A model generated the notes under the pieces. That model did no database searches. It was not told the DNA's origin and saw only the letters and a list, made by a program, of their open reading frames with translations. From NCBI GenBank assembly GCA_903837075.1, contig CAILTI010000029.1, positions 1-39,225 of the forward strand: a DNA stretch of 39,225 bases. Direction: 5' to 3'. Shown here one piece after another: positions 1 through 4,047 of this stretch. Positions within the stretch are counted from its first letter, which is position 1, and the number at the start of each line of letters is the position of its first letter. The position numbers and the translations under genes are program-made. This DNA is from an uncultured bacterium. GTDB lineage: Bacteria; Patescibacteriota; Minisyncoccia; Phycocordibacterales; PALSA-1337.

Positions 1-151
1 GTGACCAATATACCAGCGCATTTTCCAAAGGATGAGTGAATCCTTGGAGCGAGTCCTTTGTGAAAATGCTGGTATATTGGGAACAAAGCCGCAGACGATT
101 CAGCAGAATCGTGTCGTCTGGACTCTGAAAAGAGGTGTGAGAGGTTACTTT
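1..151. repeat. Dispersed structured repeat (MITE-like), partial copy cut by the window start
   Basis: 1-94 matches 29373-29466 at 92/94 nt; 131-151 (AGAGGTGTGAGAGGTTACTTT) resembles the right inverted repeat of the 29333-29495 copy. Confidence 0.85.
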
Positions 152-159
152 TATAGCTA

Positions 160-187
160 TTGACTTTTACCTATATTGCGGTATAAT
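160..187 (+). promoter_or_regulatory. Sigma70-type promoter for the DGR target gene
   Basis: TTGACT (160-165), 16-nt spacer, TATAAT (182-187). Confidence 0.65.
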
Positions 188-215
188 ACATGCAGTTCTT
201 TGATATGCTAACTTA

Positions 216-295
216 GTAGGTGATTTTGCAAAATCGCCTACGTTCGCTACAGCATTTAGTGGTCTAGGAGGTAGACTATTGAATGCTGTGGCGAA
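216..295 (+). promoter_or_regulatory. Structured 5' leader of the DGR target gene (two long hairpins)
   Basis: Hairpin 216-241 and a fully paired 24-bp stem 243-266/272-295 (4 G-U pairs) with a GGAGG loop. Confidence 0.6.
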
Positions 296-364
296 GAGTC
301 CAGCGACAAAAATAACCGAGCTTGCCATTTGAGGCTTGCTTAACAATAGAAAGGACACGTTATT

Positions 365-997
365 ATGAATAGCACGTTCACGTTGAGTCAGGGTGCCGGT
401 CAGAAACTGGAATTCGCATTCCAACGAAATGATGGTAATACAGCCGATTTGGAGTGGTTATCGACGGGCGACAACCTCAGGTCAGTCATCCAACTCGCAC
501 GAGGCGAAGCGGATCTGGGTCTCAAGGCTAAACCCGCTCTTGAGCCCGAGCCGGCGATCGACTCGATCATCCGTGTGGATCGTTCGATCCGCCCCACTTA
601 TCCAGACTGGGTGAAGACAGTGATGCATCCTGAATTGGAATCCATTGGCCCAGCTGAGTACGATATCTCACGAGTCGAGCAGTGGCTCCATGACGGCCAG
701 AAGGATGGGAAATGTATCGAAGGTAGCAAGATCTATGCCCATCTCAAGGAGACCTACACACTCAAGACTTGTCTAGGACTGTGTGACCTGAAGGTAATCC
801 AGAATAAAGGCACCGCCTTTTTCCGGGAGCACTTCAAGTACAAAGCAGTCTTCGCGTGGAAAGGGGTCGTGCGGAGCCGCGATGGCGACCTCCGCGCCCC
901 GTACCTCTACGATCTCGGCGACGATGTCGCCCTGTCTTGGTTTTGGCTCGGCAACGGCTGGTTCGACAGTGACCCGGCCCTGCGTCTCGCAAGTTAG
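365..997 (+). CDS. DGR target (variable) protein, 210 aa, C-terminal VR-encoded region, probably C-type-lectin-like fold
   Basis: Last 43 codons match the TR with adenine-specific substitutions; AAGGA upstream of the ATG; fold is inferred from typical DGR targets with a C-terminal VR. Confidence 0.9.
   Translation: MNSTFTLSQGAGQKLEFAFQRNDGNTADLEWLSTGDNLRSVIQLARGEADLGLKAKPALEPEPAIDSIIRVDRSIRPTYPDWVKTVMHPELESIGPAEYDISRVEQWLHDGQKDGKCIEGSKIYAHLKETYTLKTCLGLCDLKVIQNKGTAFFREHFKYKAVFAWKGVVRSRDGDLRAPYLYDLGDDVALSWFWLGNGWFDSDPALRLAS
866..992 (+). repeat. DGR variable repeat (VR), ending in an invariant GC-rich/IMH-like segment (974-992)
   Basis: 127-nt ungapped alignment to 1337-1463; 22 mismatches, 19 at TR adenines. 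Confidence 0.95.
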
Positions 998-1095
998 TAC
1001 TTTGGACTGAGTCACTTTGCACTTTCTGCACTTTGACCTTAGCTCTAAAAATCTGGTGGTATAACCACTCGGCATGGAATGAGCCGCTGACATTC

Positions 1096-1126
1096 AAAAC
1101 CCGAACGATGAGATCGTTCGGGTTTT
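1096..1126. terminator. Perfect 14-bp hairpin downstream of VR (terminator and/or DGR homing cruciform)
   Basis: AAAACCCGAACGAT-GAG-ATCGTTCGGGTTTT. Confidence 0.75.
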
Positions 1127-1140
1127 CTAATATTGAAATA

Positions 1141-1149
1141 TGCTATGAT
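1141..1149 (+). promoter_or_regulatory. Extended -10 promoter candidate for the TR RNA
   Basis: TGcTATGAT; predicted start near 1156 coincides with the first stem of the structured leader. Confidence 0.5.
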
Positions 1150-1155
1150 TATTTG

Positions 1156-1510
1156 CGGTAGTAGGTGAATACGCTGGCGGCCATGTGCTTCCGGCTACCG
1201 AATCCAGTATCCATAAACTGAGAGCGTCTGCGGCCAACCCAGTAGGTCATCCTACTGGATGAGACGCTAAATCAGATTCAATCCTGAGATCGCTAATGGC
1301 TTCGAGGGGTGGTGATATGGATGGTGTTTTGTATGTATCGTGCGGAACCGCAATGGCAACCTCAACGCCCCGTACCTCTACGAGAACGGCGACAATGTCG
1401 TCCTGAACTGGAATTGGCTCGACAACGACTGGAACGACAATAACCCGGCCCTGCGTCTCGCAACTCTCTTCATTTCTCTCCCTTTTACATTTTCGTAGAT
1501 TTGGGAGAGT
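1156..1510 (+). ncRNA. Putative DGR template RNA (structured leader, TR, 3' spacer hairpin)
   Basis: Stems 1156-1161/1195-1200, 1209-1215/1316-1322, 1223-1229/1262-1268, 1239-1246/1251-1258; TR 1337-1463; 3' stem 1476-1482/1503-1509. The 3' end is uncertain. Confidence 0.55.
1337..1463 (+). repeat. DGR template repeat (TR)
   Basis: 12 AAC/AAT codons in the VR frame; differs from VR almost only at adenines; next to Avd-like and RT genes. Confidence 0.95.
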
Positions 1511-1844
1511 TTTGTTTTGTAAGCTGTCCGCTCCAACCGCCGAGATTTTTGCCAATTTCCTCTAATATTAACGAAAGCGCAATGTATCGCTTGTCAATTA
1601 GCGACTTGGTTTCCCACAAGATCATGAGAAGTATTTTCAATGCATCTAGCTTCTTAATAGCCAACCTTACATACGGTTGCTTTTCGGTTGGACCGAGGAA
1701 GCTGGCTGCGGCGATTGCTTCAATGATTTCAACAAATAATGATTCAATCCTGAAACCGATTGAGTGTCTATGCAGTTTCGGTATGTCTTGATAATATGTG
1801 TACCAAAGCAAATATGCATCCTTCACTTTACTCAAAACAGGCAA
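1485..1844 (-). CDS. avd: DGR accessory variability determinant (Avd-like four-helix-bundle protein), about 119 aa
   Basis: Basic helical protein with IPKLHRHSIGFRI and EEIGKNLGGW, typical of the bAvd/four-helix-bundle family. Start uncertain: TTG 1844 gives the usual size, ATG 1916 would overlap RT. Confidence 0.8.
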   Translation of the reverse strand: MPVLSKVKDAYLLWYTYYQDIPKLHRHSIGFRIESLFVEIIEAIAAASFLGPTEKQPYVRLAIKKLDALKILLMILWETKSLIDKRYIALSLILEEIGKNLGGWSGQLTKQNSPKSTKM

Positions 1845-1875
1845 AATTCGTGCGGGGGGGGGTCCGATTAATAGT

Positions 1876-2895
1876 ATGTCTAGAATCCAATTCAACCATA
1901 CATACGATAGTATCATTTCTGTAGAGAATCTGCTCGGAGCATGGAAAGATTTTTTGAAAGGCAAAAAGAAGAGGAAAGATGTGCAGGAATTTGAACGCGA
2001 TCTGATGGCGAACATCATTTCATTACATAACGATCTGCAATCCAAGACCTACAAACATTCAGTGTACGAATTTTTCCGAATATATGACCCAAAACTGAGA
2101 GACATTCATAAAGCTACTGTGCGAGACAGGGTATTGCACCGAGCTGTGTACAGGGAGTTGTACCGATTTTTTGACAAAACATTTATAGCGGATTCATTTT
2201 CATGCCGGATGAGAAAAGGAACACATAAAGCTATTGATAGATTCAGGTCATTTGCTCGCAAGGCATCTCGTAATCATACAATGACAGTATGGGTTCTAAA
2301 ATGTGATATACGAAAATTCTTTGCATCGATTGATCAGAATATTTTGAAGGAGATAGTCAAACTGTATGTATATGACAGATACATCCGTAAATTGCTCTTG
2401 GAAATCACTAATAGTTTTTCGTCTGGTGAAAAAGGTGTCGGTCTTCCACTAGGGAATCTAACGTCTCAACTGTTTGTGAACATTTATATGAATGAATTTG
2501 ACCAATATGTAAAGCATAAGATGAAAGCAAAACACTACATACGTTATGCAGATGATTTTGTCATCATTTCACGAGATAGAGAATGGCTTTGTAATCTCAT
2601 TCCTCAAATTGGTGACTTTCTCTGGTACAGATTGAAGTTACGACTTCATCCTGATAAGGTCTCCATAGGAACTATTGCCGCTGGTGTAGACTATCTTGGC
2701 TGGGTAAGTTTTCCTGATCACCGAATAGTTCGTACATTGACGAAAAAGAGAATGTTTAGAAGACTTAAGGATGTTGATGGTAAAGTTGAGACGGTCCGTT
2801 CGTATCTCGGATTGTTGAAACATGGAAATGCCAAGATGTTACGAGATAAGGTCGAATCAATGAAAACTACCCATAAACGCCGAGACACAGTATAA
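1876..2895 (+). CDS. DGR reverse transcriptase, about 339 aa
   Basis: KCDIRKFFASID, GLPLGNLTSQ (DGR-type GxxxSQ), YIRYADDF, DYLGW; no maturase or endonuclease extension; ATG 1876 preferred over GTG 1798. Confidence 0.95.
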   Translation: MSRIQFNHTYDSIISVENLLGAWKDFLKGKKKRKDVQEFERDLMANIISLHNDLQSKTYKHSVYEFFRIYDPKLRDIHKATVRDRVLHRAVYRELYRFFDKTFIADSFSCRMRKGTHKAIDRFRSFARKASRNHTMTVWVLKCDIRKFFASIDQNILKEIVKLYVYDRYIRKLLLEITNSFSSGEKGVGLPLGNLTSQLFVNIYMNEFDQYVKHKMKAKHYIRYADDFVIISRDREWLCNLIPQIGDFLWYRLKLRLHPDKVSIGTIAAGVDYLGWVSFPDHRIVRTLTKKRMFRRLKDVDGKVETVRSYLGLLKHGNAKMLRDKVESMKTTHKRRDTV

Positions 2896-2904
2896 TTAAC
2901 CCCA

Positions 2905-4047
2905 ATGAAAACACTCAAAGATATCGAATATCTATCTGGCGTAAAGGTGCTCGTGCGCGTTGATTTCAATGTACCTATCAAGAACGGCCTAGTTGCTGAT
3001 GACTTTCGTTTGAAAGCGGCTTTGCCGACGATAGATTTCCTCACAGGTAAAGGTGCCAAGGTGATCTTGATGAGTCATCTAGAGTCTGCAGATGGTACCA
3101 ATCCATCCCTTGCGCCAGTTGCCGACAGACTGAAGAAACTCGGCCGAGAGGTAATATTCATCAAGGATTTCAATAAGGCGCATGAAGTTATCAATGAACA
3201 ATTGAAAGGTGGAGCATGCGCACTGCTAGAAAATTTGCGTTATTTTGATGGTGAAAAGAAAAACGATCCGAAGTTTGCAAGAGAGTTGTCTTCACTCGGA
3301 GATCTATATGTGAACGATGCTTTTTCCGCCTCACATAGAGAGCATGCGTCGATCGTCGGTGTGCCGAGATTGATGCCTAGTTACGCAGGATTACAGATGG
3401 AGAAGGAAGTCACGAGTCTGTCAAAGGCGTTCGATCCAGCACATCCATTCCTATTCATTTTGGGAGGGGCGAAATTCGGCACCAAATTGCCATTGGTAGA
3501 AAAGTTCATGAATATCGCCGATCAGATCTTTGTAGGAGGGGCATTGGCGAACGATCTATTGAAGGCGAAAGGATATAATGTTGGCATGTCGAAGGTTTCT
3601 GAGGAAAAGGATTTCCCAGTTCCCATGTCAGATCTCAGAACTATGGCACAAAATACGAAACTCATATTGCCTATAGATATCATAAACGAGCAGAAAGTCG
3701 CAAAGATGACAGATGCACTATCAGCGAGTGACAAGAATGTCGACATGGGACCGAAAACACTAGAAAATATCAAGGATATAGTTTCCAAGTCTAGATTCGT
3801 TCTCTGGAATGGGCCGATGGGAGTATATGAGTCTGGATTCAAGGAGGGAACTATAGAATTGGCGAAGATAATGAGTGAGGCAACAGCCAGAGGTGTCGAG
3901 ACGATAGTCGGCGGGGCAGATACATTGGCGGCGATCGCTGAGCTCGGCAGTCGAGAGACATTCTCTTTCATTTCTACTGGAGGTGGTGCGATGCTAGATT
4001 TCCTAGCAAAGGGAACTCTACCAGGAATCGAGGCGTTGAAGGATTAG
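2905..4047 (+). CDS. pgk: Phosphoglycerate kinase
   Basis: RVDFNVP, LLENLRY, VNDAFSASHR, LGGAK, WNGPMG, STGGGA motifs. Confidence 0.97.
   Translation: MKTLKDIEYLSGVKVLVRVDFNVPIKNGLVADDFRLKAALPTIDFLTGKGAKVILMSHLESADGTNPSLAPVADRLKKLGREVIFIKDFNKAHEVINEQLKGGACALLENLRYFDGEKKNDPKFARELSSLGDLYVNDAFSASHREHASIVGVPRLMPSYAGLQMEKEVTSLSKAFDPAHPFLFILGGAKFGTKLPLVEKFMNIADQIFVGGALANDLLKAKGYNVGMSKVSEEKDFPVPMSDLRTMAQNTKLILPIDIINEQKVAKMTDALSASDKNVDMGPKTLENIKDIVSKSRFVLWNGPMGVYESGFKEGTIELAKIMSEATARGVETIVGGADTLAAIAELGSRETFSFISTGGGAMLDFLAKGTLPGIEALKD

Follow-up and report, generated by a model that had tools for sequence, protein, structure and literature searches.

How is the RNA of a diversity-generating retroelement (DGR) laid out when avd is inverted and ends almost against TR? 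Few known groups of DGRs are as numerous as those of CPR bacteria, yet to our knowledge only the element of a Bordetella phage has had its mechanism elucidated. The DGR RNA of BPP-1 consists of 20 nt of avd, TR and a spacer of which 140 nt are needed (Handa et al., bioRxiv 10.1101/2023.10.23.563531). In the BPP-1 element as described there, avd is co-oriented with TR and lies upstream of it, whereas in the locus studied here avd is inverted and lies downstream. The initial annotation of this locus proposed that a BPP-1-like priming spacer is encoded antisense to avd. We analyzed the 39,225-nt contig CAILTI010000029.1 of assembly GCA_903837075.1, from an uncultured PALSA-1337 bacterium (Patescibacteriota), hereafter called the window, together with related elements from genomes and metagenomes.

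Gene order and identity of the components

The window carries a Patescibacteria (CPR) DGR with the B3 layout. The order target(+), TR(+), avd(-), RT(+) and the coordinates first assigned to these elements were all confirmed (Table 1). TR and VR differ at 21 of 126 positions (83% identity), with 18 mismatches at TR adenines and 3 elsewhere, and VR ends 5 nt before the stop codon of the target gene. The locus thus shows two traits expected of a DGR, a TR/VR pair that differs at TR adenines and a target gene that carries the VR at its 3' end. The target gene itself matched no Pfam or NCBIfam family in a profile search, and the perfect hairpin that follows it is probably terminator-like. The DGR also has its RT gene: the translation matched RVT_1 with an E value of 1.2e-21 and a score of 77.9 bits (cut-off 29.6), and contains YADD and LGNLTSQ, motifs that are marks of DGR RTs. 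Relatives of this RT, about 55-71% identical, adjoin avd and TR in 80 genome loci and 80 metagenome loci.

Table 1. Positions and strands of the DGR features in the window, with the basis of each assignment
Feature	Position	Strand	Basis or remark
DGR target gene, 210 aa	365..997	+	ORF; VR at C-terminus
VR	867..992	+	Direct repeat with TR, 83% identical
Perfect 14-bp hairpin, terminator-like	1096..1126	+	Inverted repeat, 100% complementary, 3-nt loop
Leader remnant	1199..1337	+	Leader covariance model, weak partial match
TR	1338..1463	+	126-nt direct repeat with VR; adenine-biased mismatches
Pyrimidine-rich linker CTCTCTTCATTT	1464..1475	+	Conserved in alignment of relatives
Linker strand TCTTCATTT	1467..1475	+	Counterpart in relatives provisionally pairs with leader AAAUGAAGA
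TR RNA 3' hairpin	1476..1509	+	Outer stem CTCTCCC/GGGAGAG; avd stop in apical part
avd, about 119-121 aa	1485..1850	-	Profiles, AlphaFold model, Foldseek
U-run TTTTGTTTTGT, predicted TR RNA 3' end	1510..1520	+	Near-invariant TTTT(G)TTTT after the hairpin
Run of 9 G	1854..1862	+	Inside the 25-31-nt avd-RT gap
DGR reverse transcriptase, 339 aa	1876..2895	+	RVT_1 profile match

The reading of the minus-strand ORF as Avd held up. Its product matched NCBIfam NF033474 (DivGenRetAVD; E 3.9e-14, positions 1-102 of 104) and Pfam PF22296 (bAvd; E 5.3e-08), and despite near full-length coverage both scores, 52.8 and 33.8 bits, fell short of the curated cut-offs of 80 and 40. Searching the PDB with the single Avd sequence gave no usable match, and a profile built from 59 Avd homologues had no PDB match at E <= 1. 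The AlphaFold model (pLDDT 93.6) has four helices at residues 4-20, 25-50, 58-80 and 86-113, and low pLDDT at residues 114-121. Foldseek aligned this model with BPP-1 Avd (4dwl_C; TMq 0.82, TMt 0.90, rmsd 1.4 Å) and also matched the Avd chains of 8ubb, 8ub7 and 8ube. The protein encoded beside the DGR RT is thus predicted to be a four-helix bundle with the fold of BPP-1 Avd.

Both ends of avd lie close to their neighbors, as had been noted. The minus-strand stop codon (TAA, 1485-1487) is 21 nt past the last TR/VR-homologous base at 1463. At the other end, the conserved Avd N-terminus extends to 1844-1850 and the start codon is ambiguous (TTG at 1842-1844 or ATT at 1845-1847), so the head-to-head gap to the RT ATG, put at about 30 nt in the initial annotation, comes to 25-31 nt, the exact value being set by the choice of non-ATG start.

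The initial annotation contrasted the inverted avd with the co-oriented avd of BPP-1. The inverted layout is already published and is the ordinary part of the finding. The B3 architecture, TR-(avd)-RT, accounts for 90% of a 126-element CPR DGR set (Wu et al. 2018, PMC5758913), and TR, the reverse-strand avd and RT of the window have the identical order and orientation. B3 was reported there for CPR, and the relatives of the window element are likewise all Patescibacteria. A survey of avd orientation, as proposed initially, found avd on the minus strand and immediately before RT in 75 of the 80 genome loci and 67 of the 80 metagenome loci. The other genome loci were four that have no upstream DNA and one, L031, with an inverted module; the other metagenome loci were ten without upstream DNA and three that have upstream DNA yet lack avd. 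Across 66 elements, the avd stop lies a median of 15 nt past the TR end (range -4 to 70). The target-leader-TR-(avd) module of L031 is flipped in its entirety relative to RT, and even there TR and avd still converge. The passages on B3 in Wu et al. 2018 give the gene order alone, and do not mention an avd stop within a TR-flanking hairpin, the leader described below or a G-run. Among the papers listed by a literature search, none described a leader, a G-run or an antisense overlap of this kind.

The 3' end of the TR RNA and its overlap with avd

The CTCTCCC/GGGAGAG stem that was reported across the avd stop was confirmed: 1476-1482 pairs with 1503-1509, and the stop codon lies in the apical part. 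The 76-nt segment containing this hairpin folded at -17.6 kcal/mol, compared with -9.6 +/- 2.3 for its shuffles (z = -3.4; 1 of 200 as good). The window hairpin (-14.1 kcal/mol) is followed by TTTTGTTTT, which gives it the sequence features of an intrinsic terminator. A simple consensus terminator scan did not flag it, because the rule was limited to loops of 3-8 nt and the apical part here is 20 nt. We then scanned each of 65 elements for a hairpin of dG <= -8 with a T-run immediately after it. Such a hairpin was present on the plus strand just 3' of TR in 59 of the 65, starting about 12-13 nt past TR, compared with 5 shuffled segments, 1 RT-internal segment and no minus-strand segment among 65 each. 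The family hairpins have a median of about -14 kcal/mol and their U-runs are near-invariant. In a MAFFT alignment of the 3' flanks, RNAalifold recovered just five outer stem pairs, because inner stems and loops vary in length between loci. Most likely, judging from these sequence features, the hairpin and U-run end the TR RNA by intrinsic termination.

The antisense overlap of the TR RNA with avd was borne out by the relatives, with the 3' end of the RNA taken as predicted. The 3' arm of the hairpin plus the U-run overlaps avd by 34 nt in the window, and the overlap of avd with the 3' element is above zero in 58 of the 59 hairpin-bearing elements (median 25 nt, range -20 to 58), so that a conserved RNA element lies opposite the last avd codons. 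The avd stop falls before the hairpin in 16 of these elements, in its 5' arm or loop in 38 and later in 5. avd translates GGrGAG-TTTT(G)TTTT as K-Q-N-S-P in 33 loci and as K-T-P in 20, and 4 loci have other readings. Because avd reads the motif in two frames, it is conserved as nucleotides and not as protein. The final 8-11 codons of avd, together with its stop, are encoded opposite the hairpin 3' arm and U-run, and the RNA element probably dictates the sequence there, with the disordered Avd tail following suit.

Does this constraint continue into avd? Third-codon-position entropy is 1.8-2.0 bits along most of the gene up to window position 1521, is lower at two-fold-degenerate and invariant-Trp codons, and falls only at the U-run, 1510-1520. 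RNAalifold found no conserved pairs in the 187 nt past the U-run of 50 elements. The suppression of synonymous variation that had been suggested at the avd 3' end is thus present for about 35 nt and absent deeper in the gene, where variation is free from 1521. Since RNA-level constraint ends about 35 nt into avd, a 140-nt priming spacer antisense to avd is unlikely. Primer and stop strands of the BPP-1 type were not found in the roughly 140 nt downstream of TR.

The 3' element resembles intrinsic terminators between convergent genes in that a GC-rich stem with a U-run directly after it sits at the point of convergence. Unlike a plain shared terminator, it has its U-run on one strand only. The outer stem sequence, the linker and the spacing of about 12-13 nt from TR are also kept among loci with Avd proteins that share just 30-75% identity. 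As judged from the alignments, this conservation exceeds a terminator's needs. In BPP-1 the Avd-binding stem-loop (Sp 3-33 in Handa et al.) also lies directly after TR, and the family hairpin may be its counterpart.

A structured leader upstream of TR

Relatives of the window element have a structured leader of about 187 nt on the 5' side of TR. Its 34 pairs were paired in 95.4% of alignment cells, compared with 37-53% for slid partners, with 425 compensatory cells compared with 74-112; none of 500 shuffles matched the observed values. We assigned the leader to the plus strand because it contains many G-U pairs. A covariance model built on it matched 72 of the 80 genome loci and 55 of the 80 metagenome loci, with the DNA absent at every missed locus but L152, and was found in 31 of the 151 genomes sampled from this phylum. 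Rfam release 15 gave no match at E <= 1 in window positions 1-3000, and in five typical loci gave three chance-level matches alone, all outside the leader.

A 12-bp helix, which shows covariation, joins one strand of the leader to the bases immediately preceding TR, and this pairing to the TR 5' flank is well supported. The neighboring strand would pair with the linker on the other side of TR (AAAUGAAGA:UCUUCAUUU), an assignment that we make provisionally. In the MAFFT alignment, this leader-linker duplex was paired in 75.2% of cells compared with 43-54% for slid partners, a quarter of the cells being unpaired, and had 44 compensatory cells compared with 9-28. On the two measures that tally pairs or the types of pair, 126 and 49 of 500 shuffles scored as high as the real data. 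Cognate duplexes averaged -4.62 kcal/mol compared with -2.75 for non-cognate ones, a difference that kinship of the sequences inflates; 38 of 47 cognate duplexes beat their own non-cognate mean and none of 5000 permutations equaled this, a test inflated by kinship in the same way. The leader-linker helix is therefore moderately supported.

Other candidate pairings were set aside because they are G-U-rich or invariant and lack covariation: the leader GGUGG with the linker UCAUU, the loop AUUC with GAGU, and the leader A-run with the U-run. The outer stem and U-run are uninformative on the A-run pairing because both hardly vary, and the A-run may also sit on the U-run as part of a three-way junction.

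A permuted RNA model, its alternatives and the state of the window copy

We propose that the TR transcript of these elements would run, from 5' to 3', through the leader, TR, the 12-nt pyrimidine linker, the hairpin and the U-run. One leader strand would lie on the sequence before TR as the 12-bp helix and its neighbor on UCUUCAUUU after TR, so that TR would loop out between two adjacent duplexes. This topology would be that of the stop and template:primer duplexes of BPP-1 with the order permuted: RNA parts that lie in the 140-nt downstream spacer of BPP-1 would appear upstream of TR, and the TR RNA and avd mRNA would share only about 35 nt. The pairings of the leader are shown by covariation (provisionally for the 3' one), and its priming role is suggested by analogy with BPP-1. 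This B3 account, with upstream leader strands bridging the TR flanks, a hairpin/U-run 3' end and a short avd overlap, is the one that we favor as probable.

The comparison with BPP-1, as far as that element is described by Handa et al., has both likenesses and differences. In both cases one duplex lies on the sequence before TR and a neighboring duplex on the template 3' end, and both are formed by adjacent segments of one bridging strand that reads, from 5' to 3', primer-side segment, short gap and stop-side segment. The bridging strand is in the upstream leader here, whereas it is downstream of TR in BPP-1; the conserved RNA 3' of TR is only about 57 nt here compared with the 140-nt spacer; and we identified no counterpart in the family RNA of the 3' bRT-binding stem of BPP-1. 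Putative stop duplexes between upstream and downstream sequences were listed for 207 of 278 Avd-DGRs, CPR included, and in the BPP-1 stop duplex compensatory mutations failed to rescue (Handa et al., bioRxiv 10.1101/2023.10.23.563531).

The run of G between avd and RT is a further conserved feature. A G-run of at least 8 occurs within this gap in 60 of 74 loci, and just 4 runs of at least 8 G or C occur across the other 489 kb of the same loci. A wider form of the permuted model would place an RT-binding scaffold, probably, as well as the bridging strands in the upstream leader and leave only the hairpin 3' of TR, would have this arrangement enable the convergent avd, and would make the conserved run, 8-14 G in length, a slippage on/off switch for the system as a whole; we offer it tentatively, with more doubt than confidence.

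The account given in the initial annotation, in which a long BPP-1-like 3' spacer holds the priming site antisense to avd and avd mRNA gates mutagenesis, draws on the convergence of TR and avd. Across such a short gap any long 3' extension of the TR RNA would be antisense to avd, the convergent pairing is retained in the inverted L031 module, and BPP-1 does require its 140 nt of spacer (Handa et al., bioRxiv 10.1101/2023.10.23.563531). However, the stretch in question opens with the terminator-like hairpin and U-run in 59 of 65 elements, its synonymous sites are free and its conserved pairs nil beyond the U-run, and the strands pairing with both TR flanks (provisionally for the 3' flank) sit upstream. 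We consider a priming spacer there very improbable. The shared hairpin region, about 25-45 nt, could instead couple the supply of Avd and TR RNA by pairing or by polymerase collision. Besides the near-universal overlap and the inheritance of convergent TR and avd as one unit in L031, such coupling would fit the lack of a U-run after the hairpin on the avd strand (0 of 65), since avd transcription may then continue into antisense TR. On the other hand, the stop moves between positions before, within and after the hairpin, an overlap of -20 to 58 nt means that a fixed antisense register is not kept, and gene packing in small genomes accounts equally well for hairpins common to convergent genes. 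Coupling of this kind seems unlikely.

If the TR RNA ends at the U-run, RT then requires a promoter within avd. No conserved promoter was visible inside avd in the relatives, where third codon positions vary freely, and the avd-RT gap, 25-31 nt in the window and for the most part about 10-50 nt among relatives (range -5 to 48), leaves no room for two separate divergent promoters. Both points would be met if the hairpin were an attenuator and RT were made from a read-through transcript spanning the leader, TR, antisense avd and RT, comparable to the co-transcription of TR and brt in BPP-1. Such strong hairpins with near-invariant U-runs nevertheless resemble efficient terminators, the TR module and RT of L031 are on opposite strands and cannot be co-transcribed, and TR and RT need not share a transcript (Wu et al. 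2018, PMC5758913). We regard read-through as quite unlikely, and retain the permuted RNA ending at the U-run. For the TR RNA itself, a consensus scan of positions 900-3000 found no promoter-like site on the plus strand. By eye only, TGCTATGAT at 1141-1149 resembles an extended -10 box.

What the present analysis adds is a testable RNA architecture, in which a strongly covarying leader outside Rfam pairs with the 5' flank of TR and, provisionally, with the 3' flank, and a 3' hairpin and U-run are conserved as nucleotides and read by avd in two frames. If the leader primes and stops, a primer downstream of the template is not needed for cis-priming, and surveys confined to the 100 nt 3' of TR would overlook B3-type cis elements.

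The leader of the window copy is decayed. The model's match to it, at 1199-1344, contains mispairs and skips 30 model positions; it scores only 22.1 bits (E 6e-4), compared with 71-177 bits for full-length copies in genome loci and 90-179 bits in metagenome loci. About 70 nt of the consensus are gone. One hairpin is absent, as are the A-run, UACUUGG, the AAAUGAAGA strand and the strand that forms the 5' side of the 12-bp helix. The missing strand was not found elsewhere in the window, and no other leader copy was found in its own genome, which is 77% complete. A sister element with the same deletion was also not found, the closest in the metagenome scan having 73% RT identity. Because both bridging strands are lost, the window copy may no longer diversify its target. 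The 18 adenine-specific VR changes imply that the element worked once, with the present leader or before the deletion. The strands that the window leader lacks are the very ones underpinning the permuted-RNA model. The leader model score could serve as a simple marker of intact and decayed elements, with 22 bits in the window compared with 71-179 bits for the full-length copies among the 160 loci.

The inverted avd and its spread

A complete diversity-generating retroelement (DGR) cassette occupies the first 2.9 kb of the window. The template repeat (TR) and the variable repeat (VR) differ at 21 positions, with 18 of the mismatches at TR adenines and 3 elsewhere.

Features of the DGR cassette in the window
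Feature	Position	Strand	Remark
Target gene, 210-aa ORF	365-997	+	VR at its end
VR	867-992	+	126 nt
TR	1338-1463	+	83% identical to VR
avd ORF	stop 1485-1487; conserved N-terminus to 1844-1850	-	
RT gene	start 1876	+	RVT_1, E 1.2e-21

The minus-strand ORF, taken as avd in the initial annotation, matched NF033474 and PF22296 over the whole length with 52.8 and 33.8 bits, under the curated cut-offs of 80 and 40, respectively. The model of the protein, built on 59 homologues, was a confident four-helix bundle (pLDDT 93.6) that superposed on BPP-1 Avd 4dwl (TM 0.82/0.90, rmsd 1.4 A) and on the Avd chains of DGR RNP structures. Since the profiles match whole-length and the four-helix bundle superposes, the ORF is indeed Avd. 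We also found that a canonical start codon is not conserved in avd (minus strand, window 1842-1850 and the homologous positions): the conserved N-terminus opens with I/L-L-P, encoded by ATT, CTG, CTA or TTA followed by TTG, TTA or CTC. A start further upstream is excluded, because in-frame stops lie a few codons up in the related loci L002, L009, L013, L015, L048, L056 and L061.

The TR-(avd)-RT order, where brackets denote the reverse strand, has been described as architecture B3 (Wu et al. 2018, PMC5758913). We analyzed 80 genome loci, all from Patescibacteria-type MAGs with RTs 55-71% identical to the window RT, and 75 of them carried a minus-strand avd immediately before RT; four loci had no upstream DNA, and L031 was the only one with a plus-strand avd, 1.5 kb from RT. 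Among 80 metagenome loci, which are not fully independent of the genome set because some metagenome contigs duplicate MAG contigs, avd was adjacent on the minus strand in 67, on the plus strand in none, and missing in 13 (10 without upstream DNA and 3 with some). The inverted avd, whose spread the initial annotation had left open, is thus the rule among these relatives and corresponds to the published B3. TR was located in 70 elements, and the 66 clean ones gave a median distance of 15 nt from the TR end to the avd stop (range -4 to 70) and of 336 nt from the VR end to the TR start. In L031, the sole locus of this kind, the whole target-leader-TR-(avd) module (1622-2700) is flipped with respect to RT; even so, a hairpin followed by a U-run remains the point on which TR and avd converge. 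Because L031 keeps only the convergent TR/avd junction, the head-to-head avd/RT junction is the less constant of the two.

The avd-RT gap, 25-31 nt in the window, is very short in these loci, and in 60 of 74 of them it holds 8-14 consecutive G residues, mostly 9-10, on the RT-sense strand (window 1854-1862). Elsewhere in these loci, over 489 kb, only four runs of at least 8 G or C were counted. The G-run could serve in ribosome binding, as a promoter element, or as an on/off switch of the cassette that is prone to slippage; no description of it was found in the literature searched. In most loci, the first ~70 nt after VR contain several degenerate repeats of ~8-9 nt with the pattern nnCTTnGnn, followed by a terminator-like hairpin. 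The repeats read GTACTTTGGACTGAGTCACTTTGCACTTTCTGCACTTTGACC in the window (998-1045), and a search for the exact motif found it in only 5 of 65 elements. They may be the counterpart of the BPP-1 target-recognition element that follows IMH.

The hairpin after TR and its overlap with avd

The stem CTCTCCC/GGGAGAG, which the initial annotation had placed at 1476-1482 and 1503-1509, is present at these positions, its folding beats 199 of 200 shuffles, and TTTTGTTTTGT directly follows it. Downstream of TR, the loci share the consensus CGCAA-CTCTCTTnATTT-CTCyCC(variable inner stem and loop)GGrGAG-TTTTGTTTT. A plus-strand hairpin (dG <= -8 kcal/mol) with a T-run directly after it was found in 59 of 65 elements, compared with 5, 1 and 0 of 65 for shuffled segments, RT-internal segments and the minus strand, respectively; four of the six elements failing the scan do carry the hairpin, its T-run being weaker or offset. 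The inner stems vary between loci with pairing retained. Of 59 cases, 58 showed an overlap of avd with this hairpin/U-run element; the median overlap was 25 nt (range -20 to 58; 34 nt in the window). The motif is read by avd as K-Q-N-S-P in 33 loci, as K-T-P in 20 and otherwise in 4. Since it is translated differently between loci, the nucleotide sequence is conserved and not the Avd protein tail, which is the one region that the Avd model predicts with low confidence. The proposed overlap of the TR RNA with avd is therefore conserved, and the predicted 3' end of the TR RNA does not fall before 1485.

It had also been proposed that the priming spacer 3' of TR is antisense to avd, so that avd mRNA could gate mutagenesis, and suppressed synonymous variation was to be sought at the avd 3' end. 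We found that, for the majority of codons as far as window 1521-1523, the third-position entropy of avd was 1.8-2.0 bits; it was lower at two-fold-degenerate and invariant-Trp codons, with a local run of low entropy only over the U-run. RNAalifold predicted zero pairs in the 187 nt after the U-run in 50 elements; in contrast, the leader upstream of TR, at equal length, gave 34 pairs and -37 kcal/mol. Deeper in avd, neither the entropy nor RNAalifold revealed an overlapping RNA element. The overlap is restricted to the terminator-like hairpin, and most likely the priming spacer is not antisense to avd; none of these results favors gating of mutagenesis by avd mRNA. On the avd strand, where no U-run follows the hairpin, transcription may continue into antisense TR.

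A structured leader upstream of TR

About 190 nt before TR are conserved across loci. In an alignment of 45 loci (20 of 65 elements were excluded for large insertions or for being the window itself), 30 of the 34 RNAalifold pairs had compensatory changes. The cells were paired at 95.4% vs 37-53% with the partners slid by 1-3 columns, compensatory cells numbered 425 vs 74-112, and 0 of 500 shuffles attained any observed measure. The many G-U pairs assign the leader to the plus strand. With 12 bp, the largest helix (98.5% paired, 9 covarying pairs) connects a strand inside the leader to the sequence ending a few nucleotides before TR. R1, the covariance model built from this alignment, matched 72 of 80 genome loci with 71-177 bits, including the 20 loci outside the seed, and all 8 loci without a match lack the DNA. 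Among the metagenome loci, R1 matched 55 of 80; 24 of the other 25 lack the DNA, and the remaining one, L152, also lacks avd. Of 151 genomes sampled from the phylum, 31 had an R1 match, and no Rfam counterpart was found for window 1-3000 or five typical loci. Several Patescibacteria genomes (G075, G141, G050, G080 and others) have 2-3 leader copies and hence presumably several DGRs. In genomes, a few R1 matches were weak or short (29-56 bits, 77-102 nt) and may represent leaders truncated like that of the window.

The leader probably also pairs with the 3' flank of TR. Directly behind an A-run, and 6 nt upstream of the internal strand of the 12-bp helix, lies AAAUGAAGA. Its complement, UCUUCAUUU, is found in the linker that separates TR from the 3' hairpin, and many loci have matched changes on both sides (AAAUAAAAA/UUUUUAUUU, AAACGA/UCGUUU, AACCA/UGGUU, GUGAG/CUCAC, and one G-C to C-G flip). 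In a 50-locus alignment, leaving out 14 non-window elements that failed the anchoring rules, the cells were paired at 75.2% vs 43-54% in slid controls, with 44 vs 9-28 compensatory cells. The covariation score was attained by 0 of 500 shuffles, and the two pair-count/pair-type measures by 126 and 49 of 500. Without alignment, cognate leader-linker duplexes averaged -4.62 kcal/mol vs -2.75 for non-cognate ones, 38 of 47 were better than their own non-cognate mean, and 0 of 5000 permutations equaled this; because relatedness of the loci inflates such tests, the helix is supported but provisional.

Comparison with BPP-1 and the leader of the window

In the BPP-1 RNP, TR is followed directly by Sp 3-33, a stem-loop that binds Avd. 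The priming A56 is presented by Sp 47-56, which is paired with TR 117-129; Sp 59-70, two nucleotides on, forms the stop with the 11 nt immediately upstream of TR, and Sp 95-139 binds bRT (Handa et al., bioRxiv 10.1101/2023.10.23.563531). Like BPP-1, the CPR family has a hairpin right after the template and one bridging strand: its 5' segment is paired to the 3' end of the template region, its 3' segment to the sequence immediately before TR. Unlike in BPP-1, the CPR bridging strand is in the leader and not downstream of TR. Covariation shows its pairings, provisionally for the linker helix, and by analogy we infer that the leader bridging strand would prime cDNA synthesis. The same study surveyed 40 nt upstream and 100 nt downstream of TR in 278 Avd-DGRs and reported putative Avd-binding stem-loops in 207, CPR members included (10.1101/2023.10.23.563531); the CPR 3' hairpin probably belongs to this class. 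In B3 elements, the 100-nt "spacer" of that survey is mostly antisense avd coding sequence, which its main text does not mention, the words "antisense" and "opposite" occurring there 0 times.

The window's own leader gave only 22.1 bits with R1 (1199-1344), and none of the full-length leaders elsewhere in the 160 loci scored below 71 bits (71-179 bits). It is about 70 nt short of the consensus: the 3' strand of the first helix, the A-run, AAAUGAAGA, UACUUGG, the 5' strand of the 12-bp helix and one hairpin are missing, and the missing part was not found elsewhere in the window or in its genome, which is 77% complete. The short leader and the three non-adenine TR/VR mismatches suggest that the window DGR once worked and may now be impaired; judged from its sequence, it may be decaying. 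It is also possible that the gap is an assembly error. The second hairpin of the leader has the insert CCCAGUAGGUCAUCCUACUGG. The motif AGTAGGTCAT sits in a hairpin, CCAGTAGG-TCAT-CCTACTGG, inserted in the loop of this second hairpin (1233-1267), and the L068 leader has a similar insert, CCAAGTAGGTCAT. Window 207-241, upstream of the target gene, contains the related hairpin GTAGGTGATTTTG/CAAAATCGCCTAC (repeats D15 and I19).
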